Positions 8,445 through 25,525 of a stretch of DNA of 64,000 nucleotides are shown here, one piece after another. The DNA is taken from positions 19,268 to 83,267 of the forward strand of contig CAYMDO010000002.1 of NCBI GenBank assembly GCA_964389365.1, written 5' to 3'. This DNA comes from an uncultured Syntrophomonadaceae bacterium (lineage in GTDB: Bacteria > Bacillota > Dethiobacteria > DTU022). The notes beneath the pieces were generated by a model. It was not told the DNA's origin. It worked only from the letters and a program-made list of their open reading frames with translations, and did no database searches. Position 1 is the first letter of the stretch, and the number at the start of each line of letters is the position of its first letter. Position numbers and translations under genes: made by a program.

Positions 8445-9245
8445 TTAGAGATAGAGGTTGCGCCTGCTGAATACTATTACGCCCAGGCTGTAGAGAACTA
8501 CTGCAACGGCGGCAAAGGGCAGGCAGATACCGAGTAATTCCTGCTTGCCGCTTACGATGGCGGTGGCATCGAAAAGTGAGTAAAGGGTTAGATACTTAAG
8601 CCAATCGTTGTTTCCGCCGATATTTTTTAACATATTGACGATAAAGAAGAAGACCGGGATTCCGCCCCCGAAAGCGAGGGAATACTTCGATTCATTAAAA
8701 ATACAGGAAAAGAAGAAGCAGATTGAACTGACGGCCAGGGTCAGCAAAACTGTTACCAGGTTTAGCTCAGTGAAAGCGGGGATATCCATTTCGCCCGGGA
8801 ACATCGCTTCACTGACAGCGATACCGATCGCCGCGGTTAATACCAGCAGCAGGGAGACGCTTAAAGCCAGGTAAAAGCCCTGGGTTGAAATAATCTTTGC
8901 CCGGCTGTTCGGCGTCGCCAGCAGAAAAGCCATTGACCCCCGGTCCACCAGGACCGCCACCAGGCGGTTGGCCGCAATAATACAGTAGATCAGCGGAAAC
9001 ATGGTCACCAGGAAGCCGTAAAAATAAACAGCCATAAAGGTTGTCAGGCTGGTTACCGGCATGTCATAACCGAAGGCCTCCATCATACCCTGCGGCAGGG
9101 CCTTCACATAAAGGTTCATGGCACCTATCGTTTCCGGGTCGTACATGCCAAGCATGATAACCATGTACATTAAGAGGACGGCAAAGAAGATCAGAAAAAC
9201 CACCCAGTTTGATTTTGCTGTGGCTTTGAAGAGTGAAAAGTTCAC
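8445..9245 (-). CDS. ABC-2 family transporter permease
   Basis: 266 aa with 6 predicted TM helices. Overlaps the upstream ATPase gene by 4 nt (operon). Confidence 0.65.
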   Translation of the reverse strand: MNFSLFKATAKSNWVVFLIFFAVLLMYMVIMLGMYDPETIGAMNLYVKALPQGMMEAFGYDMPVTSLTTFMAVYFYGFLVTMFPLIYCIIAANRLVAVLVDRGSMAFLLATPNSRAKIISTQGFYLALSVSLLLVLTAAIGIAVSEAMFPGEMDIPAFTELNLVTVLLTLAVSSICFFFSCIFNESKYSLAFGGGIPVFFFIVNMLKNIGGNNDWLKYLTLYSLFDATAIVSGKQELLGICLPFAAVAVVLYSLGVIVFSRRNLYL

Positions 9246-10489
9246 CAGGGCATAACCTCCTGTCCGTAATATTTAAGGAAAAGCTGTTCCAAACCCTGGG
9301 TCACAACATCCAGACCGGTTACGCTGCACCGGGCAAGCGCAGCGGCAAACTGGTTGTAATTGTCTTTAACAATCACCTCGACAGTATTTTTACTGGCTTT
9401 TCCGAGCTCGAGGCCGGCGCGGCGCAGGTGCTCAATGTCCTCCGGTACGGCAAGGGAAACCAGGTATGTTTTGCGCTGTGATGATTTCAGCGAGTGGACA
9501 TCTTCCAATGCAACCAGCCGCCCTTCGCGGATAATGCCGGCCCGGTCGCAGGTGCGGTAAGTTTCCTCGAAATTGTGCGAAGACATGAGAAATGTTTTTC
9601 CCCGTTCCTTTTCTTCCAACACCAGCTCGACAAATTCGTTTTGCATCAGCGGATCGAGGCCGCTGGTCGGCTCATCTAATATATAGACAGCAGGATCATG
9701 CATAAAAGCTGTGACAATGCCCAATTTCTGCTTCGTCCCCTTGGACATCTTGCGGATGCGGCCGGCTGGGTCCAGTTCCAGGCGGTCCAGCAGGCTGTCG
9801 CGGCGTTTTTTATTGTTATCGCCCCTTAAAGCAGAAACCAGGTTCAGAAACTGGGTGCCGGTCATCTCGTCAAAAAAGGTTATTTCGCCGGGCAGGTAAC
9901 CGAGGCTTCGCTGGATCAGGTCGGAATCGCGCCAGCAGTCAAGGCCGTTGATTAAGCAGCTTCCTCTGGTTGGCCTGGTAAAACCGAGCAGGTTGCGGAT
10001 AGTTGTTGTTTTGCCGGCCCCGTTAGGTCCGAGAAAACCGAAGGCTTCGCCCTGGCTGACGCTGAAGGTAAGGTCAAATATACCCTTGCCGCTTCGATAT
10101 ATAAATGTCAGCGATTCGATCCTGATCACTTGTTTTTGCCCTATCGGCCCGGCGTTAAGCTTACCCTGCTGTATTTCTGCCAGCGGTTTGATAAACCTGC
10201 CCTGTTCCCAGAGGCCGTCCGCAACCCTGCCGTCCGGGCTTAAATATTTTCCGCAGCCCTCCCGCTTGCCCTTATTTATTTCCCCCACGTAAACGCCGCC
10301 ACTTGGATAGATAACCATGCCCCGGCCGTGGGGTTTTCCTTCCTGCCAGTCTCCTTCATAGCGGGTTCCGTCAGGCAAAATAAGGCTGCCTTTTCCCTGC
10401 GGCATACCGGAAGCGGTTTCTCCGCAGTATTCGCCCCCCAGCCAGGCTATGCACTTTTGCCCTCCGGGCCGGTTTGTTCCAACCATCAA
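9242..10489 (-). CDS. ABC transporter ATP-binding protein with N-terminal MORN-repeat domain
   Basis: Residues ~20-110 carry repeated YEGDWQEGKPHGRG / YVGEINKGKREGCG MORN-type units. Then Walker A GPNGAGKTT, signature MSKGTKQKLG and Walker B ILDEPTSGLD. Confidence 0.8.
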   Translation of the reverse strand: MMVGTNRPGGQKCIAWLGGEYCGETASGMPQGKGSLILPDGTRYEGDWQEGKPHGRGMVIYPSGGVYVGEINKGKREGCGKYLSPDGRVADGLWEQGRFIKPLAEIQQGKLNAGPIGQKQVIRIESLTFIYRSGKGIFDLTFSVSQGEAFGFLGPNGAGKTTTIRNLLGFTRPTRGSCLINGLDCWRDSDLIQRSLGYLPGEITFFDEMTGTQFLNLVSALRGDNNKKRRDSLLDRLELDPAGRIRKMSKGTKQKLGIVTAFMHDPAVYILDEPTSGLDPLMQNEFVELVLEEKERGKTFLMSSHNFEETYRTCDRAGIIREGRLVALEDVHSLKSSQRKTYLVSLAVPEDIEHLRRAGLELGKASKNTVEVIVKDNYNQFAAALARCSVTGLDVVTQGLEQLFLKYYGQEVMPW

Positions 10490-10859
10490 AAGATCCCGCC
10501 TTTCAAGGCGCCCGCTTCTGCCAACCGAAAGCGCTTGTTATTACCAGGCCCGCAGATCAGCTTCTGCTCTGCTTTCAATAGTAATACCCTGTCAATAATA
10601 TCACTAGTTCTCATAATTTAACAGTATTCCGGCAGATGTCTGCTGCTGTTGCTGCCAAAAGTTACTTATTTCAAATCAAGCGAAGTATAGTGTAAAGTTA
10701 TTGCAGGGATTCAGCAGGTAAAGATATTTCTAAGATAGAAAGAGGAAACTCATATTCGCCAATGAACAAATCCCCCCACTTAAGGAGGCAGAGGTTCCTC
10801 ATGGAAATAGTTCGCGTAGTAGAAGAGATAGTCCTTTCAGTAGTTAGCAAAGTATTAAA

Positions 10860-11130
10860 AGTATTAGCAGGAGAGGTCAGTTACAGGAGCTCTGAAACAA
10901 TCCTGAAGGAAAAACTGGACGGACTGCCCTTTTCCAGGTTATATCTGATTGTTACGAACAAAGGAGCGTAATTATCACCACCAATCTGGAGTTTAGCAAG
11001 TGGGTTCAAATCTTCCATGAAGAGCAGGTAACCACTGCGATGAACAATCGCCTGGTCCATCATGGCTATCTCTTAATTTTTGATGGCCAAAGTTACAGAA
11101 TCAAGAATTCGTTGATGAAAGTTGAAGCGT
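10860..11130 (+). pseudogene. istB: IS21-family IstB helper ATPase remnant (frameshifted C-terminal fragment)
   Basis: Frame translation ...YEQRSVIITTNLEFSKWVQIFHEEQVTTAMNNRLVHHGYLLIFDGQSYRIKNSLMKVEA* matches the IstB C-terminus (ITSNLPFSEW...DRLVHH...GESYR). The upstream part is in other frames and no IstA is present. Confidence 0.55.
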
Positions 11131-11490
11131 AAAAATTTCCTAAAGGGTTGCTGTTTTGCTAAATTGCAAAAACAGGGAAAAAGTGATTGTAAAAAACACA
11201 GAAAGAGCCATAACCTCTTAGCAGACGAATAAGTTGATAGATTAGTGACCTATCGTGAAATTTCCTTCAAACAAAGATCATATGTGCGGAAAATTGAATC
11301 TGCCAGAATGCGACTGTTGATGCAACACAAAAGAACCGTCCCCTTGTGTTTTAGTTTTTTTATGGGATTTTGCTTAACGGCGCATTCAAGCTTGCAAGGC
11401 GTTTGCCGTTGGCATAGAATAAATTATGCATTGCCTGGTTCAATGCCGAAATGCTTACCCGGTTACTCTGTTGAAAGGATTTTTGGCGGT

Positions 11491-12532: not shown

Positions 12533-14233
12533 ATGAATAAGCCTGAAATTTATTACGAGGTTAAGGCGCAGCGGGGTCCAAGCCTGCGCTGCAAGGGTTG
12601 GAAGCAGGAAACTATCTTAAGGATGCTGGAAAACAACATGGAGAACGCCGAAAAACCTGAAGAGCTGGTTATTTACGGCGGCATCGGTAAGTGCGCGCGC
12701 AACTAGGAATCCTATCATGCCATTGTCAAGGCTTTAAAAGAGCTGGAAAATGATGAAACGCTGGTCATGCAGTCGGGTATGCCGGTGGCTGTATTCAAAA
12801 CACACCGCCTGGCCCCGCGGGTGGTGATGGCCAACACAAATATCATGAAGGCCGACTGGCCCACCTTTTACGACCTGCAGGATAAAAACCTGACTATCTT
12901 TGCCCAGTATACTGCCGGCCCCTGGGAATATATCGGCACACAGGGGGTAATCCAGAGGACCTTTGAGACCCTTTCGGCGGTGGCCAGAAAATGCTACGGA
13001 GATTCGCTGGCCGGTAAAATATTGCTGACTGCCGGCGCCGGAGGGATGGGAGGCAACCAGACCCGGGCGATGACCATGCACGGCGGGGTAGCAATTTTAT
13101 GTGATGTAAACCGTGATATAATCGAGCGCCGGATCAGCAAGAAATTTATTGATGTTATGGCCGGTTCGCTGGAAGAAGCGATCAGTATGGCTCAGGACTA
13201 TGCTGCCAGGAATGAAGCGATCGGCATCGGCCTGGTCGGCAACGCAGCGGACATTTTTGAAGAAGCGCTTAAAAAAGGGTTTAAACCCGATATAGTTACC
13301 GAAATGTGCCCCTGTCATGATCCTTTCTCCTACATTCCTTCCGGGTACAGCCCCCGGGAGGCGGATGAATTGCGGGCCGCAGACCGGAACCTTTACCTGG
13401 AAAAGGCGCGCGAAACGATGATCAGGCAGCTTAAAGCTATGAACCGGTTTTACGGGCTGGGGGTGCCGACTTTTGAATACGGCACCAGCATTCGCAAGGA
13501 ATGCCGTGACGGCGGGATGCCGGAAAAGGAAGCTATGACGATTCCCGGTTTTGTAGCCGAGTACATCAGGCCTCTCTTCTGCGAAGGCCGCGGACCCTTC
13601 CGCTGGATCTGCGTTTCCGGGGAGGCCGAAGATTTGAGGAAGCTTGATGATCTCTGCCTGGAAATGTTTGCCGACGACCTGCTCGTTACCCGCTGGATCA
13701 AGCTGGCCCGCCGGGATATCCCGATTGAGGCGCTGCCGGCCCGGATCTGCTACCTCGGTTTCGGCCAGCGCAAAAGATTTGCCCTGGCGGTCAATGCCCT
13801 GATCCGGACCGGTGAGGTGAAGGGCCCGGTCGCATTCTCCCGGGATAACCTTGATTCCGGCTCCATCGTTAACCCCACCTTCGAATCGGAGAATATGCCG
13901 GACGGCAGCGACCTGATTTCAGACTGGCCCATGTTGAACGGCCTGCTTAATGCCGCGGGGATGTCGGACTTGATCGCCATCCAGGCAAATTATTCGATGG
14001 GGGAAGCGGTTCACACCGGGGTAACGATGATTGCCGACGGAACTGACGAGGCTGATTTACGGCTTTCTGTCTGCATGACAGTCGATTCCGGCATCGGCGT
14101 TGTACGCCATGCCCAGGCCGGTTACGAAACGGCGAAGGAAGTAGCCGATGGCCGGGGCAAGCTGACCGGCGAAAATATAAAAGTGCCGCTCTGGTGGATC
14201 CCGAAAGCCACCTTTGGGCCGCAGGATCTGTAA
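12533..14233 (+). pseudogene. hutU: urocanate hydratase interrupted by an in-frame TAG at 12704-12706, at the position of a conserved Trp
   Basis: Full-length similarity to HutU ([16 protein letters not shown] versus B. subtilis GGIGKAARNWECYHAIV; downstream FCEGRGPFRW etc.). There is an RBS AGGAAGGGG before the ATG at 12533. TAG is a genuine stop elsewhere in this window. Confidence 0.8.
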
Positions 14234-14259
14234 ACACCCGCCGCTCGCAAAATATTTGA

Positions 14260-14966
14260 AGCAGCAGCCGGGCGACCTGTAAAGAGGCAGCAGTAGCCGG
14301 GCTTAACCTTGCTGAATACTGTGACGCCTGGTGTGATGATGGTTACTACAGCGCCGCCGAGTGCGAAAAGATCTTAAATATTGCCCTGGATTATGGACTC
14401 AAACCCAAAATTCACACCGATGCCTATTCTTACATTGGCGGCTCCGACCTGGCGGCTGAAATGCAGATGGTTTCGGCCGATCACCTCAACTACACCCCCC
14501 GGCGGTGATGAAAAAACTGTCGTCTGCAGGAGTAGTCGGGGTACTGATGCCCGCGCTCGATTTCGCCGTCAGGCATCCGCGCCCCTTTGATTACCTGGCT
14601 ATGAAAGAGCAGGGTTTAATTGTGGCGCTCGCCACAAACCACTGTCCCGGCTGTTGGGCCGAGTCGATGCAGTTTGTAATGGCACTGGCCTGCCGTCTCT
14701 ATCGGATGAGCCCGGCAGAGGCGCTGCATGCAGCGACTGCCGGGGCGGCAAAAGCGCTTGGAATCGATAAGGATTACGGCAGCCTGGAAGCCGGTAAATT
14801 TGCGGATTTTCAAATCTGGGATGTTCCAAGTTACGAGCATGTTATCTGCCGCCTCGGCGCCAATGTTGTGGAAAAGGTAATTAAAAAGGGTAGATTGCTG
14901 GTTGACAACAGCATCAGCGAGATTGCCCTCGAGTCCGGTGATGACCGGAACCGCTTAACTGATTGA
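14260..14966 (+). pseudogene. hutI: imidazolonepropionase, C-terminal half only, with a frameshift near the C6 run at 14494-14499
   Basis: Two frames read LAEYCDAWCDDGYYSAAECEKILNIALDYGLKPKIHTD...SADHL and then GVVGVLMPALDF...LATNHCPG...SYEHV, matching HutI residues ~200-410. The N-terminal ~200 codons are absent. Confidence 0.75.
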
Positions 14967-14993
14967 AATCATGGCAGCAAGGAGTAAATAACG

Positions 14994-16519
14994 ATGACTG
15001 TAACCATCGATGGGAAAAGCCTTACCCTGGAACAGGTTGTCAGGGTGGCCAGGTATAACGAAGATGTTGAACTGGCAGAAACAGCTTATGACTGCATCAA
15101 TCGCTCGCGGGAGCTGGTTGAGCGGATCGTGGCGGAAAAGCGTTCGGTTTACGGTGTTAATACCGGTTTTGGCCTGCTCAGCAATGTTTCTATCACCGAC
15201 GAGGAGATCAATTAGCTCCAGTACAACCTGGTTGTCAGCTGCGTGGCTGGTGTTGGCGAACCGTTCCCGGAAGAAGTGGTACGGGCGATGCTTTTTTTGC
15301 GTTCCAACTCGCTGTCCTCCGGCTGCTCAGGGGTCAGGCCGATCATTGTTGAAACGATGCTGGCCATGCTCAGCAAGGGAGTCCACCCCGTGGTGCCGCA
15401 AAAAGGTTCAGTCGGCGCCAGCGGTGATTTAGCCCCCCTGGCGCACCTGGCGCTGGTGCTCATCGGACGCGGTGAAGCCCTGTATAAAGGGCGTTTGGTG
15501 CCGGGCGGAGAGGCTATGAAACAGGCCGGGATCGAACCCGTTGTGTTAAAGGCGAAGGAAGGCCTTTCCCTTTGCAACGGAACCCAGGCGATGACCGCAG
15601 CCGGCGCTCTCGCTGTTTACGATGCTTTAAAGATGGCACGCTACGCGGATCTCTTTGGCGCGCTTTCGGCAGAGGCACTGGAGGCAGTGTTGATGGCGTA
15701 CGATCCAAAAATCCATGCTGTCAGGCCTCACCCGGGCCAGATCGAAACCGCCGCCAACCTCAGGGAAATGTTAAGGGGCAGTGAGATCCTGGCCCACCCA
15801 TCGTCAAGCCGGGTTCAGGATGCCTACTCGCTGCGCTGCATGCCCCAGGTGCACGGGGCTTCCAAGGATGCCATCGACTATGTGAAGCAGGTAATCGAAA
15901 GAGAAATTAATTCGGTTACCGATAACCCGCTGGTCTTCGCCGATACCGGCGAGGTGCTTTCCGGGGGCAATTTTCACGGCCAGCCGGTAGCCCTGGCCCT
16001 CGATTTCTGGCTATTGCCCTCGCCGAGCTGGCCAATATTTCGCAGCTCAGGGTTGAAAGGCTGACCAACCCGGCGCTGAGCATGGGGCTGCCTGCTTTCC
16101 TGATCGAAAAAAGCGGGTTGAACGACGGCTTCATGGTTGCCCAGTATACCGCCGCCGCCTTAGTCAGCGAAAACAAGATTCTGGCCCATCCGGCAAGCGT
16201 GGATTCCATTCCCACATCGGCTGACCAGGAAGATCACGTCAGCATGGGTACCACGGCGGCCCGCAAATGCCGCGAAGTGCTGGAGAACCTGCGCTATGTC
16301 CTGGCTATCGAAGCTATCTGTGCCTGCCAGGGGATCGACCTCAGAAAGAAAAAGCCGTCACCCGTGCTGCAAAAAGCCTGCCGTATAATCAGGGAGAGGG
16401 TCAGCTTTATGGCGGCGGACCGGGAAATGAGCAAAGATTTTGAGGCGGTGGTAGCGTTGATTAAGGATGATGCCTTTAATATTGCAAATTTGCTGGGCGG
16501 GCTTGCGGGTAAGGTGTGA
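14994..16519 (+). pseudogene. hutH: histidine ammonia-lyase with an in-frame TAG at 15213-15215 (Gln position) and a 1-nt deletion frameshift near 16006
   Basis: Three ORF pieces cover full-length HutH, including the MIO motif [22 protein letters not shown] aligns to canonical EEQLEQLQLNLV. The frame switch is at [16 protein letters not shown]. Confidence 0.8.
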
Positions 16520-16640: not shown

Positions 16641-16979
16641 GTGGTTGTCGGAAAATATACGGACTTCACTCGTGCTGTAATCGGTCTTTTGATGTCTGCG
16701 GCTGGAGGGTTGGCGTTTGTGTTGGCTTTTCCGCCCTACGAAATTTGGCCCCTTGCATTTATCGGCTTTATTCCTGTCCTGCTGGCTCAATACAGGATTA
16801 TGCCGCCTAAGCTTTCATCCCTGGCTTCGGCGGCGGCCATCGGCATTTGGCTGCAGGGTTATCTGGGGCCGGTTTTTGCACCGATTGGAACTTTTATGGT
16901 TTGGCTGGCGCTGGCCGGGTTGGCATTTTTTACATGCGGGAGCTCCTGGCTGATCAAAAAAGGCAGGCAGCAAACATAG
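16641..16979 (+). pseudogene. apolipoprotein N-acyltransferase (Lnt) N-terminal fragment (~110 aa of ~500)
   Basis: GLAFVLAFPPYEIWPLAFIGFIPVLLAQYR resembles the Lnt N-terminus [20 protein letters not shown]. The ORF ends after 112 aa and no CN-hydrolase domain follows. Confidence 0.4.
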
Positions 16980-17045
16980 AAGAAGGAGTTGGTTGCCGGC
17001 CCCTTCATCACCTGTTAAGCTAAATACAAGTAAGGAGAGCCTCTG

Positions 17046-18149
17046 TTGCTTAACACCGTGCACAAGCTGTATTTCCGTGATGCGAGAAATTTGGATCAAA
17101 TCGAAGATCAGAGCATTGACCTGGTCGTCACATCACCGCCCTATCCGATGATCGAAATGTGGGACGAACAATTTTGCGGCATGAATCCTTTAATCGGTTA
17201 TAACCTCGAAACCGGTGACTATAACGGCGCGTTTGAAGCGATGCACCGGGTCCTTGATGGGGTCTGGCACGAGCTGTGGCGTGTTATGAAAGAAGGAGCT
17301 TTTGCCTGTATCAATATCGGTGATGCTACCAGGACTGTTAACAACAGATTTCAGCTCTTTGCGAATCATGCCAGGGTTCAGCGCAAGTTCCATGAGCTTG
17401 GGTTTGACACCCTGCCGCTTGTTATCTGGCGCAAGCAGACAAACGCCCCCAATAAGTTTATGGGGTCCGGAATGCTGCCTGCCGGCGCTTATATTACTTT
17501 AGAGCACGAATATATACTAATATTCAGGAAGGGCGGCAAAAGGCTATTTAAAAGTGCCGAAAGTAAATCGAGGCGGATGCAAAGCAGTATTTTCTGGGAA
17601 GAACGCAATGCCTGGTTCTCCGACCTTTGGGATTTCAAAGGGGTAAAACAGGGTACCAACAGCAGAGAACTGCGAAGCCGCACTGCTGCTTTTCCTTTAA
17701 CCCTGCCATTTCGCTTAGTCAACATGTTCTCGTTAGTCGGGGACAGGGTTCTTGATCCATTTATAGGTACCGGCACAACTGTGCTGTCGGCAATCGCCGC
17801 CGGGAGAAATAGCGTTGGTTACGAGTTGGATGAACGTTTTGCCCCGGTGCTGCAGGAGCTGATAATGAACAGTTTGCCTGCCCTGCAAAAAGTTAACATT
17901 GACAGGGTTCATGCCCATCTCGCTTTTATTCAAACCTGCAGGGCCGGAAGCAAAGAGCTGAAATACCGCAATTCTTATTTTGGTTTTCCCGTGATGACAG
18001 CCCAGGAAAAGGAACTGCAGCTGTGCTTTGCCAGCCAGGTTGAAATAGGTGGTGATCACCTTTTCCGAGCCTCATATTATGACGACCATTTTATCAAATC
18101 AATCTCTCCGAAAGACCTGATCCCGCGTGTCAGGGGGACGGGGGTTTGA
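17046..18149 (+). CDS. beta-class DNA methyltransferase (N4-cytosine or N6-adenine), orphan
   Basis: Motif IV VTSPPYP at the N-terminus, followed later by motif I DPFIGTGTT (beta permutation). No adjacent restriction endonuclease gene was found. Confidence 0.8.
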   Translation: MLNTVHKLYFRDARNLDQIEDQSIDLVVTSPPYPMIEMWDEQFCGMNPLIGYNLETGDYNGAFEAMHRVLDGVWHELWRVMKEGAFACINIGDATRTVNNRFQLFANHARVQRKFHELGFDTLPLVIWRKQTNAPNKFMGSGMLPAGAYITLEHEYILIFRKGGKRLFKSAESKSRRMQSSIFWEERNAWFSDLWDFKGVKQGTNSRELRSRTAAFPLTLPFRLVNMFSLVGDRVLDPFIGTGTTVLSAIAAGRNSVGYELDERFAPVLQELIMNSLPALQKVNIDRVHAHLAFIQTCRAGSKELKYRNSYFGFPVMTAQEKELQLCFASQVEIGGDHLFRASYYDDHFIKSISPKDLIPRVRGTGV

Positions 18150-18193
18150 CAACATTCTCCCGGGCCTTAAGTCGTCGTTTGCAGGTTTTTTAT

Positions 18194-18864
18194 TTACTTA
18201 AAAAGATCGAAAAACTCTTTTAACAGCAGTATCTTGTTGTCTTCTACTTTCAGGCGGCCGGTCGCCATCCTTGTAACCGGGCTGTTCAGGCCAAGGGCCA
18301 TATCTTTCAGCAGCGGTTCCGCAACGCTGATTAACAGGTCGGCTTCCCCGTGCAGCCCGGGCCCGATTGCGCTGCTGAGCAGGTAGTTTTCAGACAGGCA
18401 GGTTCCAAATAGGCGCATGCCCCGGACATATAGAATCTGCTGCAGCTGGCCAAACTGCTCGGAGAGGAAAGCTTCAGTTTTTGCATGCGCGTACATTTCT
18501 GCTTCATCATATCCGGAGATGAAAACCCGGGTGCCGAGAATGTGATCAAGGTGACCGTAAGTATAAATAACTGCCGCCAGGTGCTGGTCGGATATTTTAT
18601 CAAACTCAGCTTATATTTCCGCTGCGGCAGCGAGACTTTCTGTGGTATCGATAATAATGTTTCCACCGGATGTAACAATCAGTATGCTGTTGGCGGGAGC
18701 ACAACCGATTGCGACACAGATATTGCCTGTAACCTGCTCGACCCTTTTTCGAACCGCCCGGCCTGCTGTATTAAATCCAAAGGTGTAAGCGGAGCATACA
18801 TATCTGCAGCGGGCGGTTCATTTGCCGGCTGCTGCCCGTTTTTGCTTCCATAGAAAAAGTACAT
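18194..18864 (-). pseudogene. MBL-fold metallo-hydrolase pseudogene (frameshift near 18680 and in-frame TAA near 18618)
   Basis: Minus-strand translation gives MYFFYGSKNG...QAISVSQSVVLPPTAY. A shifted frame continues VTSGGNIIIDTTESLAAAAEI*AEFDKISDQHLAAVIYTYGHLDHILG (degenerate HxHxDH) and runs to the stop at 18194. Confidence 0.5.
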
Positions 18865-19191
18865 ACTTGCAGCTATGACCAGGAAGCCTGCCGCGAAAAA
18901 ATCATGTTCGGGAAGAGCTGAAACAGGTCCATTTTGTTCGCCCCTTGCTTTATTGCCACCTGCAACGCGATCTTCCCGCGATCAACGGCCGGTGCAACCT
19001 CGAATTTACCCCAGGCTGTACATGCGATTTTCAAACGGCGCCGGCGCTCATTTTACACAATTATATTATAATAAAATAAAGTATATTACTATTGCGATAA
19101 TTCGGAATGAGCTAAATAATTGCTTGACTTCATCGGTAAGATATATTACAATATAAATAAATTTACAACATAAAATAAGGGGGCCAAGGAT

Positions 19192-19554
19192 ATGCCCTGC
19201 CGGGAAGAAGGGCTGCCAGCGATGAACAATCTAAAATATATACACCAAAACCCGGAACTGGACCGGTTTATTCACGAACCGGCCCGGCTGCAAATTCTCA
19301 GCTACCTTACCACAAGCGGCTCTGAAGTTGTTTTTACCGAACTTGGCGGTAAGCTGGGTTTATCTGCCGGCAACTTGTCCGTCCAATTGAAGAGGCTGGA
19401 AAAAGTCGGGTATTTATCAATAAATAAAACATTTAAAGACAACAGGCCCTTAACCAGTATTATCCTGACTCATGCTGGCAAAAAGGCTCTTAAAAGCTAT
19501 ATCCGGGAACTTGAAAAGGTGATCGGCAGCCTGAAAAACGCTATGATTGACTGA
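19192..19554 (+). CDS. winged-helix transcriptional regulator
   Basis: 120 aa with HTH-like segment LGLSAGNLSVQLKRLEKVGYL. It immediately precedes the ABC operon. Confidence 0.5.
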   Translation: MPCREEGLPAMNNLKYIHQNPELDRFIHEPARLQILSYLTTSGSEVVFTELGGKLGLSAGNLSVQLKRLEKVGYLSINKTFKDNRPLTSIILTHAGKKALKSYIRELEKVIGSLKNAMID

Positions 19555-19670
19555 GCAGGCAACGGGAGGCGAAAGTTGTGCCCCGGAGTGAATGGGTATG
19601 CATTGTTGTTGCCGCCGACGGGTAGTTTAATGGAGGTTTAAACGCTTATATCCTCACAGAGAGCAGGTAA

Positions 19671-21014
19671 GTGAATATGGATGACTACGGAAATACGCCT
19701 AAAGGAGAAAAGCAGACTATACCGTGGATGAAAGGGACCTACAGCGGGCAGTTACGGCAGGGTATACCCTCGGGCATCGGCCGCCTGCAGCTGCCCGACG
19801 GAGCCGGTTATGCAGGAGAGTGGCTTAACGGAAAGCCTCACGGCGAAGGCACAATATACTATGCGAGCGGTGCCTCCTACCAGGGTGAATTTTGGAATGG
19901 CAGGCAGCATGGTTACGGCACCTATACCAACCCTGGCGGGTCGATGACCAGGGGTTTCTGGGAAGAAGGCCGGTTTGTCAGGGCCAAAGACCTTTACAAG
20001 CCAGCCCCACAGGTTACTAAATCTGCAGGGGTGCATGGCCGCTCGGCGTCCGCGGAGGCGGATCGCTTTATTGATACCGGCTTTCAAGGCCGGGACGCAG
20101 AAAGGAACAGACGGTTTTCCGAAGCCTTCGACCGGGCCGGAACAGGCATGACAAGAGGGCTGCCGGCGATTGCTGTCAGTGGTTTAAGCCACTGGTACGG
20201 GAAGTTGGAGGCTGTAAAGAATATCAGTTTCGAGGTTTTCCCGGGCACAATTCTTGGCTTTCTTGGGCCGAACGGTGCCGGTAAATCTACTACTATCAAA
20301 GTTCTTACCGGGCAGCTGCCCCTTATGGGCGGCGCGGCACAGATCCTCGGACGGCCAGTAGGGCGTGATGACCCTCATATCCAATCGCAGATTGGAGTTT
20401 CTTTTGAAGAGAAAAATCTCTACCTGGAGATGACGGCGCTTGAGAACCTGGATTTCTTTGCTTCCCTTTTCGGCATTAGAAATCCCGGATCCCTTCAGGC
20501 CCTGCAGCGGGTCGGACTGGCCGACCGGGCCAGGGACCGCGTTGCCAACTACTCCAAGGGTATGCGGCAGCGCCTGATGATTGCCCGGGCTTTTATAAAC
20601 AAGCCGACAGTGCTTTTCCTTGACGAACCGACCGACGGGCTTGACCCGGTTACCGCTACCGCGATCCGCAAAACAATTAAGGAAGAAGCCGATCGGGGGG
20701 CGGCTGTGCTGCTGACCACCCATAATATGTTTGAAGCCGATGAACTTTCCGACAGGGTTGCGTTTATCAATGAGGGTCAGATTGTGGCCCTCGATACGGC
20801 GGAAAATCTGAAGATAAAATACGGCAAGAGAGCGGTAAGGGTGAGGCTGCGCGACGGCAGCGGGGTTCGCGAAGAAGAGCTGCCCCTGGACGGGGAACAA
20901 TCATCCTCCCGCCTCAGCAAGCTGGCTGCCTCGCCTGACCTGTTGACCATTCACACTGAAGAAGCGACCCTGGAAGCGATCTTCATCCACCTGACCGGCA
21001 GGGGGCTGGTATGA
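19671..21014 (+). CDS. ABC transporter ATP-binding protein with N-terminal MORN-repeat domain (paralog of 9242..10489)
   Basis: N-terminal repeats YAGEWLNGKPHGEG / YQGEFWNGRQHGYG; then GPNGAGKST, signature YSKGMRQRL and Walker B LFLDEPTDGLD. Confidence 0.8.
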   Translation: MNMDDYGNTPKGEKQTIPWMKGTYSGQLRQGIPSGIGRLQLPDGAGYAGEWLNGKPHGEGTIYYASGASYQGEFWNGRQHGYGTYTNPGGSMTRGFWEEGRFVRAKDLYKPAPQVTKSAGVHGRSASAEADRFIDTGFQGRDAERNRRFSEAFDRAGTGMTRGLPAIAVSGLSHWYGKLEAVKNISFEVFPGTILGFLGPNGAGKSTTIKVLTGQLPLMGGAAQILGRPVGRDDPHIQSQIGVSFEEKNLYLEMTALENLDFFASLFGIRNPGSLQALQRVGLADRARDRVANYSKGMRQRLMIARAFINKPTVLFLDEPTDGLDPVTATAIRKTIKEEADRGAAVLLTTHNMFEADELSDRVAFINEGQIVALDTAENLKIKYGKRAVRVRLRDGSGVREEELPLDGEQSSSRLSKLAASPDLLTIHTEEATLEAIFIHLTGRGLV

Positions 21015-22258
21015 TGGATAAGACAGTTACTGCCGGCAATCTGCTGGGTGCGGTTCTTAAAAAAGATGCCCGTGTCTACAGCCGGAATGCTATTTATCTT
21101 TTTCTAACTATCTTGAGCATAGTTTTTTTCGTGATCATTTTTTGGATTGTGCCCGATACTGTTGATGAAGATTTGCCCTTTGCCATCACACCCCCGCTTT
21201 CCGTGATCTTCGGGGAAAGCAAAGATGCGTTGTTAGCCGCCGGTATTCCGCTTGAGAATGCTGACAGGTTGGCGGAGCTTGAATCCGGCTTTAAAGAGGA
21301 AGGCCTTCAGATTATCGAGTTTGCCAGCGAAGATGAGCTTAAAAAAGCAATTTCCGGTGAAATGCTTGTATATAAAACCGCAGAAGGCAGCTATATTAAC
21401 ATTGATCCTGAAGGCAATCAAAGGAGGCCGAAAGGGGCCGACAGAGTTAAAATAGGGGTGGGTATTTCATTTACACCGGCCTTTTTCAGCGAGGTAATAA
21501 TGCAGCGAAAGCCACGGGTAACCGTATTTGCAGATGCAGCGGTTACCGATGAATTACGGGGGGTCATGCAGGGTTTTGTGCGCGAAATGGCATTTATGAT
21601 GGCCGGAAAAGAGCTGCCGGTAGAGCTGCCCCCCGATGATACCATTATCCTGGGGCGCGACCGGGTGGGTGAACAGATTTCGGTGCGGGCCAGGATGCGG
21701 CCGCTGATCGCGTTCTTTATTATGATGATGGAAACTTTTGCCCTTGCCTCGCTGATTTCCAATGAAGTGCTGCAGCGCACTGTTACGGCTTTGCTGGTTA
21801 CTCCGCTCAGGGTAAGTCATTTCCTGCTGGCCAAAACTATTTTCGGCACGATCCTGGCCATGGGGCAGGCTTTGATAGTTTTAGCCCTGGTCGGCGCTTT
21901 CACAGTTTCCAACTGGTTGCTGCTGCTGCTGATTGTTTTTATGGGCGCGCTATTATTTACCGCGGTGGCTATGCTGGTCGGCTCTGCCGGAAAAGATTTT
22001 ATCGGGCAGTTAATGTTCAGCATGCTTTTCCTGATTCCAATGATGATACCAGCTTTTGCCGTTCTTTTCCCCGGCTCTGTTGCAACCTGGGTCAGGGTCC
22101 TGCCCAGTTACCCGATCGTTCAGCTGCTTCATGATGTAACGGTTTATGAAGCCCTCTGGGCCGATTCAGTCGCACTGCTGGGCTATGCCGCTCTCTGGGT
22201 GCTGGCAATATTTGCAGCGGGCTTGATCGTTTTAAAGAGGAAGGTGGCAACGTTATGA
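21011..22258 (+). CDS. ABC-2 family transporter permease
   Basis: 415 aa with an N-terminal TM helix, a large extracytoplasmic loop and C-terminal TM helices. 4-nt overlap with the ATPase gene. Confidence 0.65.
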   Translation: MMDKTVTAGNLLGAVLKKDARVYSRNAIYLFLTILSIVFFVIIFWIVPDTVDEDLPFAITPPLSVIFGESKDALLAAGIPLENADRLAELESGFKEEGLQIIEFASEDELKKAISGEMLVYKTAEGSYINIDPEGNQRRPKGADRVKIGVGISFTPAFFSEVIMQRKPRVTVFADAAVTDELRGVMQGFVREMAFMMAGKELPVELPPDDTIILGRDRVGEQISVRARMRPLIAFFIMMMETFALASLISNEVLQRTVTALLVTPLRVSHFLLAKTIFGTILAMGQALIVLALVGAFTVSNWLLLLLIVFMGALLFTAVAMLVGSAGKDFIGQLMFSMLFLIPMMIPAFAVLFPGSVATWVRVLPSYPIVQLLHDVTVYEALWADSVALLGYAALWVLAIFAAGLIVLKRKVATL

Positions 22259-23304
22259 ACCTGAAACGAATATTTCACATTTTGGGCAAAGATTTCTCTG
22301 TCGGGCCGCGTAAGCCATTTTTTATCTGGGCCCTGGTAATGCCTTTTGCATTGACACTGCTTTTTCAATTTGCATTCGGTTCGCTCTTTGAGCCGAAGCC
22401 GCGCTTAGGCCTGGTTGACCTGGGCAACTCGGTCTTGATCACGCAAGCCGAGGCGCTCGAAGGCTTTGAAGTTGTCATCTTTACCGATCCGGAAGAGCTT
22501 CTCGAGCAGGTCGAAAATCATGATTTTGATGCCGGCCTGATTCTTCCTGACGGTTTTGACGAGGCTGTAAAAAAAGGCGAAAAACCGCTGCTCCAATTTT
22601 ACATAAGCGGCGAAAGCCTTGCTTCGAACCGGATCATCATTGCCGTGACTGCCGTGGATATGGTGCGCGGGCTTGAAGGCGCTGAGCCGCCGGTTGAGGT
22701 GAACACAGTTTACCTGGGAGAACCGGGTCTGCCTATTTCCATCCGGCTAGTCCCTCTAATTGTCTTCTATGCCCTGGTGATGGCCGGCATCTGGGTGCCC
22801 AGCGCCAGCATGGTCGAAGAGAAGGAAAACGGCACTCTGACAGCAATGATTGTTACCGCAGCGAAAGCCAGCGAAATACTGGTTGCCAAGTGGCTGCTTG
22901 GGTTTCTTTTTGCCTTTTTCCTGGCAGTCGCCACACTGCTGCTGAACAGTGCCTTCGGTCAGCGGCCGCTTGAGGTTATAGCCGTGATTGCTCTTGCTGC
23001 CGCCCTCACTGCCGAGATCGGCCTGATTATCGGCATAGTCTCCAAAACGGCAACGATGCTGTTTACCCTGATCAAAAGCCTGGGGATCTTTCTATTTGTT
23101 CCGGTTATTTTTTATATTTTTCCTGACTGGCCGCAGTGGATCGCAAAATTTTTCCCGCTCTATTGGATTATAAAACCAATCTGGGAAGTATCGATTATGG
23201 GGCAGCAGCTAAGCACTGTCTGGTTTGAAATGCTGATTGCCCTGGCTATAACTATCAGCCTTGTTCCGGTAGTCGTGCTGCTGAAAAAGAAACTCTTTGC
23301 CTGA
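22255..23304 (+). CDS. ABC-2 family transporter permease (second subunit)
   Basis: 349 aa with the same topology. 4-nt overlap with the preceding gene. Confidence 0.65.
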   Translation: MNLKRIFHILGKDFSVGPRKPFFIWALVMPFALTLLFQFAFGSLFEPKPRLGLVDLGNSVLITQAEALEGFEVVIFTDPEELLEQVENHDFDAGLILPDGFDEAVKKGEKPLLQFYISGESLASNRIIIAVTAVDMVRGLEGAEPPVEVNTVYLGEPGLPISIRLVPLIVFYALVMAGIWVPSASMVEEKENGTLTAMIVTAAKASEILVAKWLLGFLFAFFLAVATLLLNSAFGQRPLEVIAVIALAAALTAEIGLIIGIVSKTATMLFTLIKSLGIFLFVPVIFYIFPDWPQWIAKFFPLYWIIKPIWEVSIMGQQLSTVWFEMLIALAITISLVPVVVLLKKKLFA

Positions 23305-23356
23305 GAAAAATATTGGTTGCTGTAAAATAATTAACGGCCCGGTGAAGATATTCGAA

Positions 23357-23391
23357 CCACCGCTAGTCCATCCGATCGGTGGTTTTTTCTG
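23357..23391 (+). terminator. rho-independent terminator after the ABC operon
   Basis: ACCACCGctagtccatccgatCGGTGGTTTTTTCTG. Confidence 0.6.
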
Positions 23392-23497
23392 TTGCGTGGT
23401 GTGAAATTGCTTTGCTGCATGCCTTTTGGAAATCTGTTCAAACTGCTTTGATTAATGTTATAATATGCACTGTTTCATTATATTTGCGAGGTGAATC

Positions 23498-24190
23498 ATG
23501 CTCGGTAACTATGTCAATGCTCTGGCGATCATCGTTGGGGGCTTGTTGGGTTTACTATTCCATAAAGGCTTGAAAGAAAAATATAAAACGATCGTGATGC
23601 AGGCTATCGGCCTCTCCGTGATCTTTATAGGCGCCGCCACCGCTCTTGGCGGGCTGCTGAACCCTGAAAGCGAGCCGATTCTTTTTATAATCAGCTTAGC
23701 TGTCGGAGGGATTATCGGTGAAGTAATCGGGGTGGAAAGAGGCCTTGAACATCTGGGGATGTTTTTGCAGAAAAGTTTTGCTGCCACCGAAAGCAACGTT
23801 GCCCGCGGTTTTGTTACGGCCAGCTTAATCTTTTGTGTCGGGACAATGGCGATAATCGGCTCGCTGGACAGCGGGCTGCGCGGTAATCACGATATGCTCT
23901 ATGCCAAGTCTGTCCTTGATGGTATCACTTCAATGATCCTCGCTTCATCGCTCGGGTTTGGTGTGATCTTTTCAGCTGTTGCCGTTTTTCTTTACCAGGG
24001 AGCGATAGTGCTCTTTGCCAATCTAGTAGAGCCGTACCTGACAACCGCTGTCATTCGTGAAATCTCAATCATTGGCGGTATCCTTATTTTTGGTATCGGC
24101 CTGAACCTGTTGGAAATAATTAAAGTGAGGACAGCCAATTTGCTGCCGTCTATCCTAATCCCGGTCCTGTATTACCTTATTACCGGTTAA
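23498..24190 (+). CDS. DUF554-family integral membrane protein
   Basis: 230 aa, glycine-rich polytopic. N-terminus MLGNYVNALAIIVGGLLG is typical of DUF554 (recall). Confidence 0.45.
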   Translation: MLGNYVNALAIIVGGLLGLLFHKGLKEKYKTIVMQAIGLSVIFIGAATALGGLLNPESEPILFIISLAVGGIIGEVIGVERGLEHLGMFLQKSFAATESNVARGFVTASLIFCVGTMAIIGSLDSGLRGNHDMLYAKSVLDGITSMILASSLGFGVIFSAVAVFLYQGAIVLFANLVEPYLTTAVIREISIIGGILIFGIGLNLLEIIKVRTANLLPSILIPVLYYLITG

Positions 24191-24385
24191 AAGCAAGATT
24201 ACTGTTTTTCCGGCAAACACCTGTAACAAATAAACCCGGTATTTCTCCGTCCTGATAGGAATATAAATCCAGCCTGCGCAGACAAAGGTCTCTTTTTATC
24301 ATTTTTTTCAGAAGAGGTAGGAAGATGCCACTAATATGCCGAAAATATGATCAATTCAATAAAGTGTTCAAGGAGGAATTATCTG

Positions 24386-25525
24386 ATGATTTCTTTTCAG
24401 CTGACAGAAGAGCAGGAACAGATGCAAAAATGTGCCAGGGATTTTACCGCGGCGGAGATCATACCGGTTGCCGCCGAATACGATGAAAAAGAAGAAATCC
24501 CCTGGCAGGTTGTAGAAAAAGCTTATGAAGCCGGGCTGATGAATATGGCCATACCGGCCGAACTTGGCGGGCAGGGTATTGACCCTTTGACCGCGGCGAT
24601 CATCACCGAAGAAATAGCATACGGGTGCCTCGGGGTTAACGGTACTTTCGGGGCCAACGAACTGGCGGTTCAGCCAATCCTGATCGCCGGGACAGAAGAG
24701 CAGAAACAGAAGTACCTGCCTGATTTTTGTGCCAAACCCCGGCTGGCAGCTTTCGGCCTGACCGAACCTGAAGCTGGCTCTGATGTGTCCAACGTGCAGA
24801 CAAAAGCTGTGCGCGATGGCGATTACTATATCTTAAACGGCAGCAAGTGCTTCATTACCAACGGCGGTTCGGCCGCCCTCTATACTATTTTTGCCACCAT
24901 CGATAAGGGCCTGGGGCACAAGGGCCTTTGCGCCTTTATCGTTCCGGGGGATACCCCGGGTATCAGGGGAGGTAAAAAAGAACTGAAGATGGGGGACCGC
25001 TGCTCCGAGGTGGCCGAAGTAATTATCGAAGATGTCAGGGTGCCTGCAGCCAACCTGCTTGGCAAAGAAGGCGACGGCTTTAAAATCGCCATGGAAACTT
25101 TGGACGTTACCCGACCGGGAATCGGGGCGGCAGCCGTCGGCGTTGCCCGCAGGGCATTTGACGAGGCCCGGAAGTATTCCCTGCAGCGAATCCAGTTTGG
25201 CAAGCCTATTGCTGCCAACCAGGCGATCCAGTTTATGTTTGCCGAGATGGCCACCAAGATCGATGCTGCCCGGCTGCTGGTCTGGCGGGCTGCCCAGTAC
25301 CTGGCAATTGATCGGCGCGCTTCCAAGGAAGGTTCGATGGCCAAGTTTTATGCCGCCGACATTGCCATGGAAGCCACTGTTGATGCCCTCCAGATCATGG
25401 GCGGTTCCGGCTACATGCGCGATTACCCGGTCGAAAAACTGATGCGTGATGCCAAAATCCTGCAGATTTATGAAGGCACAAACCAGGTTCAGCTGATGGT
25501 CATTGCCCGGGAAATACTGAAATAA
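24386..25525 (+). CDS. acyl-CoA dehydrogenase
   Basis: AGGAGG RBS then ATG at 24386. The ACAD fold is seen throughout, with a C-terminal catalytic region YEGTNQVQ. Confidence 0.85.
   Translation: MISFQLTEEQEQMQKCARDFTAAEIIPVAAEYDEKEEIPWQVVEKAYEAGLMNMAIPAELGGQGIDPLTAAIITEEIAYGCLGVNGTFGANELAVQPILIAGTEEQKQKYLPDFCAKPRLAAFGLTEPEAGSDVSNVQTKAVRDGDYYILNGSKCFITNGGSAALYTIFATIDKGLGHKGLCAFIVPGDTPGIRGGKKELKMGDRCSEVAEVIIEDVRVPAANLLGKEGDGFKIAMETLDVTRPGIGAAAVGVARRAFDEARKYSLQRIQFGKPIAANQAIQFMFAEMATKIDAARLLVWRAAQYLAIDRRASKEGSMAKFYAADIAMEATVDALQIMGGSGYMRDYPVEKLMRDAKILQIYEGTNQVQLMVIAREILK

Follow-up and report, generated by a model that had tools for sequence, protein, structure and literature searches.

Fusions of a MORN module to an ABC ATPase have been reported in MAGs of haloalkaliphilic Dethiobacteria/'Syntrophomonadaceae', a group that also carries MORN-heliorhodopsin and MORN-kinase fusions and for which contacts between MORN modules have been proposed (Bulzu et al., 2021; 10.1101/2021.02.01.429150). 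The closest relatives of the gene described here are labelled as members of the same group, and many come from soda-lake sediments. The MORN-ABC fusion is therefore already known, and the operon that we found in a 64-kb stretch of DNA (hereafter the window) adds another member. Bulzu et al. noted the architecture and proposed MORN-MORN contacts with MORN-heliorhodopsin, and went no further: the two ATPase lineages were not separated, and the two-permease operon, the regulator cassette and the operator were not described.

For the ATPase, the best solved match that includes the C-terminal domain is Thermotoga maritima TM_1403 (4yer; 37% identity, TM-score on target 0.81), with TM0544 (1vpl) also among the closest known, and the best PDB sequence matches are ABCA3/1/7 (E 1e-55 to 1e-63). 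TM_1403, TM0544 and the ABC-2 ectodomain 3cni, to which permease B shows a marginal similarity, are structural-genomics entries of unassigned function and without a MORN module. Insect ABCH-9C and human ABCG1/G5G8 and ABCA1/3/4/7 share the TM1-ectodomain-TM2-6 layout of the permeases described here. In these eukaryotic type V exporters, however, the parts are fused into half- or full-length transporters, identity over the membrane part is 10-16%, and their cargo (ceramide, sterols, phospholipids) is not transferable by homology. Among bacterial systems, NosDFY, Rv1217c-Rv1218c, KpsMT, Wzm-Wzt, TarGH and PmtCD belong to the same fold class and ATPase subfamily neighbourhood, but with fold E-values of only 0.05-0.3; they are unlike it in the architecture of their permeases and in their accessory proteins, and all of them lack both a MORN module and an HTH_34 regulator. 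LanFEG resembles the operon in that two ABC-2 permease genes follow a single ATPase gene, and DrrAB has a single permease; compared with both, the permeases here are larger and carry ectodomains. Bacillus subtilis LnrLMN also combines one ATPase with two ABC-2 permeases. Finally, MORN1 of Trypanosoma, Toxoplasma and Plasmodium (6t6q, 6t69 and others) matches the repeats in sequence (E about 5e-25). It consists solely of about 15 repeats and dimerises through the C-terminal ones (Sajko et al., 2020), and no membrane binding was seen (PMC7725318), whereas the window ATPase has 3.5 repeats at the N-terminus of an enzyme, where dimerisation is putative.

The four genes of the locus form a genuine operon for a membrane exporter of the ABC-2 type, with an ATPase that bears an N-terminal MORN module (Table 1). 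Its four ORFs occupy 19192-23304 of the forward strand at the coordinates given by the sequence-only reading, whose gene order (regulator, MORN-NBD, permease A, permease B) and domain calls were borne out by the ORFs and by Pfam. As a whole, we consider it reasonably probable that this is a self-regulated type V (ABC-2) exporter operon in which the MORN module was a later addition to an older cassette.

Table 1. Features of the operon and of the other MORN-ABC system in the window (copy 1)
Feature	Position	Strand	Remarks
Sigma-70-type promoter	19124..19152	+	TTGACT-17 nt-TACAAT; 10/12 matches, best promoter-like site in 18400-24400
Weaker second palindrome	about 19136-19149		GTAAGATATATTAC; in promoter spacer
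Candidate operator palindrome	19152..19167	+	TATAAATAAATTTACA; core ATAAA-N4-TTTAC; overlaps -10 box and likely transcription start
Regulator ORF	19192-19554	+	Pfam HTH_34, E 1e-20, 74 bits (cut-off 27)
Remnant of small single-pass membrane peptide gene	19578..19625	+	alignment A6 with L003, L004, L005, L031
MORN-ATPase ORF	19671-21014	+	Pfam MORN, E 2e-15, 56 bits (cut-off 22.5); ABC_tran, E 1e-30
MORN-ABC ATPase	19677..21014	+	445 aa; Pfam
MORN module	19704-19991	+	residues 10-105; ATPase N-terminus; 3.5 repeats
Disordered linker	19992-20147	+	residues 106-157; 52 residues
ABC ATPase with C-terminal beta domain	20148-21011	+	residues 158-445
Permease A	21011-22258	+	Pfam ABC2_membrane_3, E 7e-18; 415 aa
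Permease B	22255-23304	+	Pfam ABC2_membrane_3, E 7e-30; 349 aa
Terminator-like hairpin and T run	23368..23390	+	64 nt past permease B stop; consensus match only
Copy 1 single permease	8445-9245	-	Pfam ABC2_membrane_2
Copy 1 MORN-ATPase	9242-10489	-	Pfam MORN and ABC_tran

The possibility that the MORN-ATPase was a mis-joined ORF had been raised. The reading frame is continuous and the same fusion recurs in 78 database clusters (64-77% identity) and 29 genome loci, which shows that the fusion is genuine. Its start is likely the ATG at 19677, two codons inside the GTG start of the ORF, in agreement with the identical database protein P0001 and with the relatives. The ATPase motif set is intact (Walker A GPNGAGKS, signature YSKGMRQ, Walker B VLFLDEP, H-loop TH), and the best solved relatives are TM_1403, NosF and ABCA3/4/7. 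In the AlphaFold2 model two confident domains are joined by a low-confidence linker (the MORN beta-hairpins reach a pLDDT of 90-97 and the ATPase one of about 90, while the linker stays below 50), and the predicted fold is that of a well-folded MORN beta-array, a disordered tether and a DrrA/ABCA-like ATPase. The length of the linker varies from 7 to 98 aa across the family, and its sequences cannot be aligned. The module would lie in the cytoplasm, where its beta-hairpin array of about 100 aa would fold independently at the end of a tether of some 50 residues. A part in catalysis is unlikely; the module would most likely serve as a handle for protein-protein docking or dimerisation and could bring the two ATPases together, gather several pumps, or link the pump to a further protein with MORN repeats. 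The window encodes neither a heliorhodopsin nor a third MORN protein.

Permease A consists of TM1, an extracytoplasmic domain of about 190 aa and five further TM segments; permease B has TM1, an alpha/beta extracytoplasmic domain of about 100 aa, five TM segments and short re-entrant helices. The two are paralogous (hhalign probability 99.6%, 23% identity). No solved relative of the permeases is detectable by sequence, bar the marginal match of the permease B ectodomain to 3cni (E 0.06). The AlphaFold2 model of permease B (mean pLDDT 80.7) finds its best PDB fold match in ABCH-9C (E 8e-7, TM-score on query 0.58), followed by ABCG1, KpsM, NosY, Rv1217c and ABCA7/1, with TM-scores that are modest throughout (0.3-0.58). 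These matches point to a type V fold whose nearest relatives are the lipid exporters ABCH, ABCG and ABCA. Two copies of the ATPase would sit beneath a heterodimer of permeases A and B, and the ABCA/ABCH/ABCG-type layout predicted for each permease, with an extracytoplasmic domain between the first membrane helix and the other five, suggests that an amphipathic or lipid-like cargo is most likely extruded from the membrane.

The ATPase, permease A and permease B genes form a triad in about 40 loci, that is, in all relatives whose contigs are long enough, and permease A adjoins the ATPase in every relative. Both junctions within the triad are 4-nt overlaps, which makes translational coupling probable. 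A single transcript would run from the promoter through the regulator, the ATPase and both permeases to the terminator-like hairpin. The promoter aligns with the one ahead of the first operon gene in L031, L004 and L001 (alignment A5) and in further relatives. The candidate operator has a single match in the window, and in nine loci (L001, L004, L006, L008, L012, L019, L024, L031 and L036) the first operon gene is preceded, at a distance of 25-42 nt, by the exact core ATAAA-N4-TTTAT. The position of promoter and palindrome is kept even between loci with protein identities of only 40-90%. From this position and conservation we infer that the HTH_34 regulator binds the palindrome, where a dimer of this small winged-helix protein would most likely repress the operon from a site that overlaps the -10 box and transcription start. 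The gap at 19555-19670, where a search for a promoter or operator had been proposed, instead holds the decayed small-peptide gene, and the conserved promoter and putative operator lie upstream of the regulator.

The regulator is ArsR/MarR-like, and its nearest solved structure is PH1061 (1ub9, E 1e-4). Orthologues with 49-74% identity are found upstream of the transporter in 15 related loci. The regulator belongs to a cassette whose other members are a membrane protein of 223 aa and a membrane peptide of 39 aa. This cassette also occurs in MORN-less relatives, including the outgroup loci L036 and L039, and is therefore older than the MORN fusion. In the window the gene for the membrane protein has been deleted. 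The native start of the regulator is probably the ATG at 19222, and the 10 codons at the head of the ORF seem to be left over from the deleted upstream gene: read by eye, 19195-19224 resembles the 3' end of the membrane-protein gene and the regulator ribosome-binding site of L003. The small peptide, 39-40 aa (MPWWGW...) and intact in 8 relatives, is reduced to a GTG start and a stop after 15 codons, with about 95 nt missing. What remains of the cassette in this genome is the regulator alone, the sensor-like membrane protein and the small peptide both having been lost. The sequence-only reading took the regulator to suggest substrate-responsive control, as in antimicrobial-peptide or drug-efflux modules. 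Control by the regulator is plausible; its cassette is partly deleted here, and the regulator predates the fusion. Regulation by the HTH_34 protein is not essential to the pump, since 18 of the 29 MORN-bearing loci have no regulator beside the operon.

Other roles for the module and the pump deserve consideration. The MORN array might be a membrane or lipid sensor: by binding anionic phospholipids in the inner leaflet, it would adjust the ATPase of a lipid-moving pump to the state of the membrane, which, if true, could be an adaptation to haloalkaline conditions. ABCA and ABCH, to which the ATPase and permease come nearest, are indeed lipid exporters, soda-lake sediments are the main source of the MAGs in the MORN-bearing clade, and the net charge of the modules is slightly positive (median +3), so weak binding to anionic lipids is possible. 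This charge is small, however, and negative in some members, and MORN1, for which a protein-protein role was argued, bound neither membranes nor vesicles (PMC7725318); we regard a lipid sensor as possible but rather unlikely. It is somewhat less likely that the operon serves resistance or immunity by exporting a membrane-active antibiotic or peptide, with an inducible repressor in control. Known analogues of such a pump are LanFEG, a lantibiotic immunity system, DrrAB and LnrLMN. One ATPase and two ABC-2 permeases behind a small repressor would fit such a function, as would the best NCBIfam match of the ATPase (DrrA subfamily, 236 bits; galliderm_ABC, 151 bits) and weak FLQE3/SagH-type matches of the permeases. 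Yet the ATPase does not reach the cut-offs of the curated NCBIfam DrrA and lantibiotic-immunity models (312 and 310), nor do the SagH-type matches reach theirs (450), no biosynthetic, two-component or peptide genes adjoin the operon, and LanE/G and DrrB lack large ectodomains of the kind seen here. A NatAB-like efflux system for sodium or another ion, suited to life in soda lakes, would agree with the haloalkaline habitat of the relatives, with NosF of the copper-related NosDFY being among the better structural matches, and with the 'drug resistance or Cu2+/Na+ ion efflux' suggested for MORN-ABC pumps by Bulzu et al. (10.1101/2021.02.01.429150), which echoes a COG-style annotation. We consider it improbable, given that family searches returned no NatA/NatB, NosY or NosD assignment, that MORN-less orthologous operons are found in MAGs of apparently non-saline origin (mines and digesters, from record titles), and that lipids, glycolipids and hydrophobic molecules are the cargo for which this fold class is best known.

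Competing accounts of the history of the locus fare less well. Copy 1 lies 9.2 kb away in divergent orientation (8445..10489), and the same divergent pairing, 6.6 kb apart, is seen in L056/L057, so that both systems co-occur 6-9 kb apart in two genomes. The MORN domains of the two copies are homologous, as had been claimed: pairwise BLASTP spans the whole module, and a profile built from one family's module scores those of the other at 111-156 bits, whereas generic MORN proteins (the top 150 from a library of 1.84 billion proteins) reach at most 79 bits in their best single domain. By these comparisons, both ATPase families carry the same specific module of about 105 aa. An ancestral MORN-ATPase fusion duplicated together with its permease, after which copy 2, the operon described here, gained a second permease and the regulator, would account for the shared N-terminal position and repeat number and for the proximity of the two systems. 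The ATPase domains of the two copies are, however, only 32-38% identical, against 78-88% between copy 2 and MORN-less ATPases and up to 79% for copy 1. In both families the MORN-bearing proteins branch as a clade within MORN-less relatives, and the ATPases that surround either copy share 65-88% identity with it but carry no MORN module. The permease families also differ (one ABC2_membrane_2 against two ABC2_membrane_3), so this operon does not mirror copy 1; the regulator cassette at the MORN-less L036 and L039 predates the module; and if the fusion had been duplicated, MORN would have to have been lost many times independently in relatives that carry the labels of several different phyla. That the fusion predates a duplication is thus very improbable: the operons are not duplicates, and one module sits on two ABC-2 lineages. 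We propose that it joined the older cassette (membrane protein, regulator, small peptide, ATPase, permease A and permease B) and was also put onto a second, unrelated ABC-2 ATPase, that of copy 1. The deletions around the operon might point to decay of the locus in this genome, or to faulty assembly, with the loss of its function as a regulated unit: three lie within 1.5 kb of its 5' end, in an alkylsulfatase-like gene, the membrane-protein gene and the small-peptide gene, and the hut genes at 12.7-16.5 kb are fragmented. This is quite improbable for a locus in which all four ORFs are intact, no stop interrupts them over 3.7 kb, their closest orthologues share 74-91% identity with them, and the promoter and candidate operator are preserved. 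Loss of the membrane-protein gene seems tolerated, as L005 carries an independent, in-frame internal deletion in it.

The operon that we call copy 2 had been proposed, from the sequence alone, to comprise four co-oriented ORFs with defined domain content, and both ORF calls and Pfam matches bear this out. An HTH_34 regulator (PF13601; 74 bits, cut-off 27; the match spans positions 2-80 of the 80 in the profile) is followed by an ATPase carrying MORN repeats, and by two ABC2_membrane_3 permeases, PermA and PermB (PF12698; cut-off 31.6, scores of 65 and 105 bits, respectively). The ATPase, PermA and PermB genes are joined by successive 4-nt overlaps, and this triad is kept in every related locus whose contig is long enough. 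Coordinates are collected in the table below, together with those of copy 1, the other MORN-ABC system of the window, and of genes of the related loci (designated L).

Features of the two MORN-ABC systems and of the regulatory cassette (window positions unless a related locus is named)
Feature	Position	Strand	Remarks
Regulator ORF, HTH_34 winged helix	19192-19554	+	120 aa; Pfam E 1e-20
ATPase ORF, MORN repeats and ABC_tran	19671-21014	+	447 aa; Pfam E 2e-15 and 1e-30 (ABC_tran 1.3e-30)
Permease A, ABC2_membrane_3	21011-22258	+	415 aa; Pfam E 7e-18
Permease B, ABC2_membrane_3	22255-23304	+	349 aa; Pfam E 7e-30
Sigma-70-like promoter, strong	19124-19152		upstream of the regulator
Decayed peptide gene remnant	19578-19625		
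Hairpin with T run	23368-23390		3' of permease B
Copy-1 MORN-ATPase	9242-10489	-	Pfam
Copy-1 single permease, ABC2_membrane_2	8445-9245	-	Pfam
223-aa membrane protein gene	L001 4674-5354; L031 5771-6442; L004 1264-1935; L006 72-743		ten more loci
Peptide gene	L031 6811-6930; L003 1101-1217; L001 5770-5889		five more loci

The fusion of MORN repeats to the copy-2 ATPase is real, as the sequence-only reading had held, and does not stem from a mis-joined ORF. Its reading frame is unbroken across the MORN and ABC parts, the same start (ATG 19677) is used in an identical database protein and in relatives, the architecture recurs in other genomes, and the MORN part forms a separately folded domain in the structural model. 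The MORN match (PF02493) reaches 56 bits against a cut-off of 22.5 and covers three full repeats, as defined by a regular expression, and a half repeat. The ABC part (PF00005) holds the complete set of catalytic motifs: Walker A (GPNGAGKS), the ABC signature (YSKGMRQ), Walker B including the catalytic Glu (VLFLDEP), the D-loop (GLD) and the H-loop (TH). An AlphaFold2 model built on 91 aligned sequences is confident and superposes on solved ATPases; residues 10-105 form a nine-stranded beta-hairpin array (pLDDT 90-97), residues 106-157 a linker (pLDDT <50), and the ATPase and its C-terminal beta domain are predicted at pLDDT ~90. The linker varies from 7 to 98 aa among relatives and cannot be aligned. 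A confidently predicted array joined by a variable, low-confidence linker argues for a genuine, independently folded ATPase domain on a flexible tether. In the window protein and its closest relatives the linker (19992-20147) contains a conserved short motif, DRF(I/F)xTxFD / RRFSEAFDR, which the model shows with low confidence as a helix (residues 142-153) and which is absent from relatives with shorter linkers.

Among 5.8 billion proteins searched, 78 clusters share the MORN-ATPase architecture at 64-77% identity; the matches also include MORN-less ATPases with 71-88% identity over the ATPase part. Scanning one genome per species, we found the fusion at 29 loci, almost all in MAGs labelled 'Syntrophomonadaceae' or Bacillota in their record titles, many of which bear soda-lake sediment isolate names. 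A six-frame motif scan revealed no third MORN protein in the window.

The resemblance of the two MORN-ABC systems had been taken as a sign that copy 2 is a paralogous duplicate of the copy-1 operon. This does not hold: the two ATPases, 32-38% identical between the copies, are far closer to MORN-less relatives than to each other, and the permeases belong to different Pfam families. Among 241 aligned sequences, the copy-2 ATPase domain is 30-39% identical to the copy-1 family and 78-88% identical to MORN-less members of its own; copy 1 likewise reaches up to 79% identity with MORN-less members of its family. In neighbour-joining trees computed from BLOSUM distances, the two ATPase families split deeply, and in each the MORN-bearing clade is nested within MORN-less proteins. 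A tree of concatenated ATPase, PermA and PermB sequences from 34 loci agrees, with a single MORN-bearing clade and MORN-less outgroups. Two MORN-less lineages, L030 and L001/L002, fall inside that clade and are best read, from their placement, as having secondarily lost the MORN region; we looked for a MORN remnant upstream of the L001 ATPase and saw none.

The ~105-aa N-terminal MORN modules, for their part, are nearly as similar between the two families (median identity 46%) as within them (48-50%). A module profile built from either family scores the modules of the other at 111-156 bits, whereas the 150 top-ranked generic MORN proteins in a library of 1.84 billion proteins reach at most 79 bits with any one domain; these whole-library matches are long multi-repeat proteins ranked by summed score and served as a control set only. 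Concerted evolution or gene conversion between modules of the same genome can be rejected, as same-genome pairs (41-43% identity) are no more alike than pairs taken between genomes (median 44-46%). These comparisons are most simply read as a single specific module having been placed on two unrelated ABC-2 ATPases within this lineage.

Copies 1 and 2 are divergently oriented and lie 9.2 kb apart, and their counterparts in the loci L056/L057 lie 6.6 kb apart. Divergent pairing at short distance in two genomes hints at a functional link between the two MORN-ABC systems. No copy-1-type system was found within 7 kb of the ~40 other related operons. The pair in L056/L057 occupies 1-3353 (-) and 10001-12042 (+), and the genes between the two systems differ from those in the window.

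Its MORN module aside, copy 2 is a conventional ABC-2 exporter operon, and it adds an uncharacterised example to a known class. hhalign pairs PermA with PermB at 99.6% probability and 23% identity, which marks them as distant paralogues, and both show a TM1-ectodomain-5 TM topology with ectodomains of ~190 and ~100 aa. The model of permease B (mean pLDDT 80.7) displays this topology and best matches the fold of ABCH-9C, a ceramide/lipid exporter of insects (E 8e-7, TM-score 0.58), followed by ABCG1, ABCG5/G8, KpsM, NosY, Rv1217c and ABCA7/1, all of them type V exporters. Fold and topology thus assign copy 2 to the type V exporters, which for the most part extrude lipids, glycolipids or hydrophobic molecules from the membrane. 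Searching the PDB with the sequences and profiles of both permeases gave nothing past a marginal ectodomain match. The closest solved relatives of the ATPase are ABCA3, ABCA1 and ABCA7, then T. maritima TM_1403 and NosF, by sequence, and TM_1403 (TM-score on target 0.81) and NosF by structure.

The DrrA model (TIGR01188) scores the ATPase highest, yet at 236.5 bits it stays below the curated cut-off of 312.45. The LanF-type model TIGR03740 gives 150.9 bits against a cut-off of 309.75, and where a LanFEG system would adjoin genes for lantibiotic biosynthesis or regulation, copy 2 is flanked by hut genes, a methylase, DUF554 and an acyl-CoA dehydrogenase. BceAB-type modules, which detoxify peptide antibiotics, combine an FtsX-type 10-TM permease that has a large loop with a neighbouring BceRS-like two-component system; the permeases here are ABC2_membrane_3, and no histidine kinase or response regulator of any kind occurs among the flanking genes scanned. 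No model of the NatA/NatB sodium efflux pump is among the NCBIfam matches listed, which for the ATPase are the best 25.

The regulator belongs to a larger cassette that the window retains in reduced form. It scores 25.6 bits with the ArsR/SmtB metalloregulator model NF033788 (cut-off 55), and a literature search on PF13601 found nothing. An HTH_34 gene lies directly upstream of the transporter in 15 loci, 11 of them MORN-bearing and four MORN-less. In 14 of the 15 it is preceded by the gene of a 223-aa multi-pass membrane protein without Pfam match, whose stop usually overlaps the regulator start; the 15th locus begins at a contig edge. Eight loci also have, between regulator and ATPase, a gene for a 39-40-aa single-pass peptide (MPWWGW...IPLKIKVWK...), as a rule too short for annotation. 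Since cassette genes occur in MORN-bearing and MORN-less loci alike, the cassette is older than the MORN fusion. The membrane protein is a possible sensor or anti-repressor partner of this uncharacterised regulator family.

The window lacks the membrane-protein gene, and tblastn found no remnant of it elsewhere in the stretch. The segment 19085-19190 aligns with the promoter ahead of this gene in L031, L004 and L001, and by eye 19183-19224 retains a few codons of its 5' end, its 3' end and the ribosome-binding site of the regulator; the regulator probably starts at ATG 19222. In the related locus L005, the membrane protein has an independent in-frame internal deletion, so that its loss is recurrent. 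The window deletions could also be assembly artefacts.

A promoter or operator had been suspected in the 116-nt gap between regulator and ATPase (19555-19670). We detected no promoter-like site there, and in alignment the gap corresponds to the 5' half of the peptide gene, with a GTG start, an early stop and ~95 nt gone. An Rfam scan of 17000-25000 (E <= 1) gave a chance snoRNA-like match only, and hence no riboswitch or leader RNA was detected in the gap; the leader likewise has no Rfam match. A candidate operator is found instead at the promoter upstream of the regulator: the palindrome TATAAATAAATTTACA at 19152-19167 directly follows the -10 box and is the sole match within 64 kb. Its exact core, ATAAA-N4-TTTAT, recurs 25-42 nt upstream of the first operon gene in nine relatives, whose proteins are 40-91% identical to those of the query locus L031, and is present in L005 too; by our estimate, ~0.5 chance matches are expected over the ~570 kb that the loci comprise. 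Another palindrome, less perfect than this one, overlaps the spacer of the promoter. The position and conservation of the main palindrome are consistent with a repressor site, and we infer that the HTH_34 protein binds it. The MORN-bearing locus L013, in which no regulator was detected, has an exact ATAAA-N4-TTTAT palindrome at 4664-4677, 39 nt ahead of the point where its MORN-ATPase begins; it may be an operator kept for a regulator whose gene lies at another place, or a chance occurrence. The conserved cassette and its palindromic candidate operator offer a handle on an uncharacterised regulator family.

MORN-ABC fusions are already known. Bulzu et al. described the MORN-ABC ATPase fusion in the text and a supplementary figure legend of their preprint (10.1101/2021.02.01.429150), and the main text of the published mSphere article does not mention ABC. 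In their fusions, ABC efflux ATPases of anaerobic, haloalkaliphilic Bacillota carry cytoplasmic MORN repeats at the N-terminus, an architecture that copy 2 shares, and the nearest relatives of copy 2, 'Syntrophomonadaceae'/Bacillota MAGs, include UBA993, which they named and which is among our fusion loci. The fusion was thus documented in print and left unexplained. What is new here is that two independent ATPase lineages have one common module, and that an older regulator cassette with a candidate operator, reduced in the window, accompanies the transporter.

Taken together, these elements suggest how such a system might work. An HTH_34 dimer would repress its own operon at the candidate palindrome. 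A membrane signal would reach the regulator, in relatives, through the co-translated membrane protein and possibly also through the small peptide, an input that the window genome would have lost. Two MORN-ATPases would drive a PermA-PermB heterodimer exporting an amphipathic compound, with the MORN module acting as a docking or dimerisation handle. It is uncommon for an ABC ATPase to bear an additional protein-interaction module, flexibly tethered, at its N-terminus; such a module could be a simple means to couple or cluster exporters, and its presence on two unrelated pumps in one lineage makes this idea testable.

Three lines of evidence favour docking or dimerisation: MORN1 proteins dimerise via their repeats and were not seen to bind membranes or vesicles (PMC7725318), the same module is retained on two different pumps, and Bulzu et al. 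reported heliorhodopsin and Ser/Thr kinases that bear MORN modules in the same MAG group and proposed MORN-MORN contacts. That the module is a lipid sensor is a live rival; MORN1 proteins did interact with individual phospholipids (PMC7725318). A bolder extension of the docking role, which we think improbable, is that the module is a lineage-specific portable tag whose MORN-MORN pairing would bring exporters together with membrane sensors in a single complex for signalling and efflux. If so, it would have spread by copying to two or more unrelated ABC-2 ATPases and, following Bulzu et al., to heliorhodopsin and the kinases, and a sensor such as heliorhodopsin, rather than the substrate alone, could gate the pump.

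Several features of the flanks deserve mention. The next gene after the operon encodes a DUF554 membrane protein (23498-24190) and has its own promoter-like site (23437-23464); it is directly downstream of the operon in the closest relatives L005, L006 and L031, and farther downstream in L008. On the other side, two adjoining segments at 18194-18821 (-) correspond, at 80-82% nucleotide identity, to both ends of a gene at 3206-4981 of L031, which encodes a 591-aa alkylsulfatase-like protein of metallo-beta-lactamase fold. The window version, which lacks ~1 kb of the middle and lies shortly before the operon promoter, appears to be what is left of a pseudogene. The histidine-utilisation genes at 12767-16519 also appear fragmented: the urocanase N-terminal domain is short by ~70 residues, only the C-terminal third of a HutI-like amidohydrolase is left (14505-14966), and histidine ammonia-lyase is broken into 15243-16064 and 16082-16519. 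These are either pseudogenes or the product of assembly frameshifts. Finally, a 112-aa ORF at 16641-16979, with a weak match to the N-terminus of apolipoprotein N-acyltransferase, shows 76% protein identity to DNA just downstream of permease B in L019 (10896-11147) and L024 (6501-6743). A neighbour of the relatives' operon therefore lies on the opposite side of the window operon, where it adjoins an N6/N4 DNA methylase gene (17046-18149).
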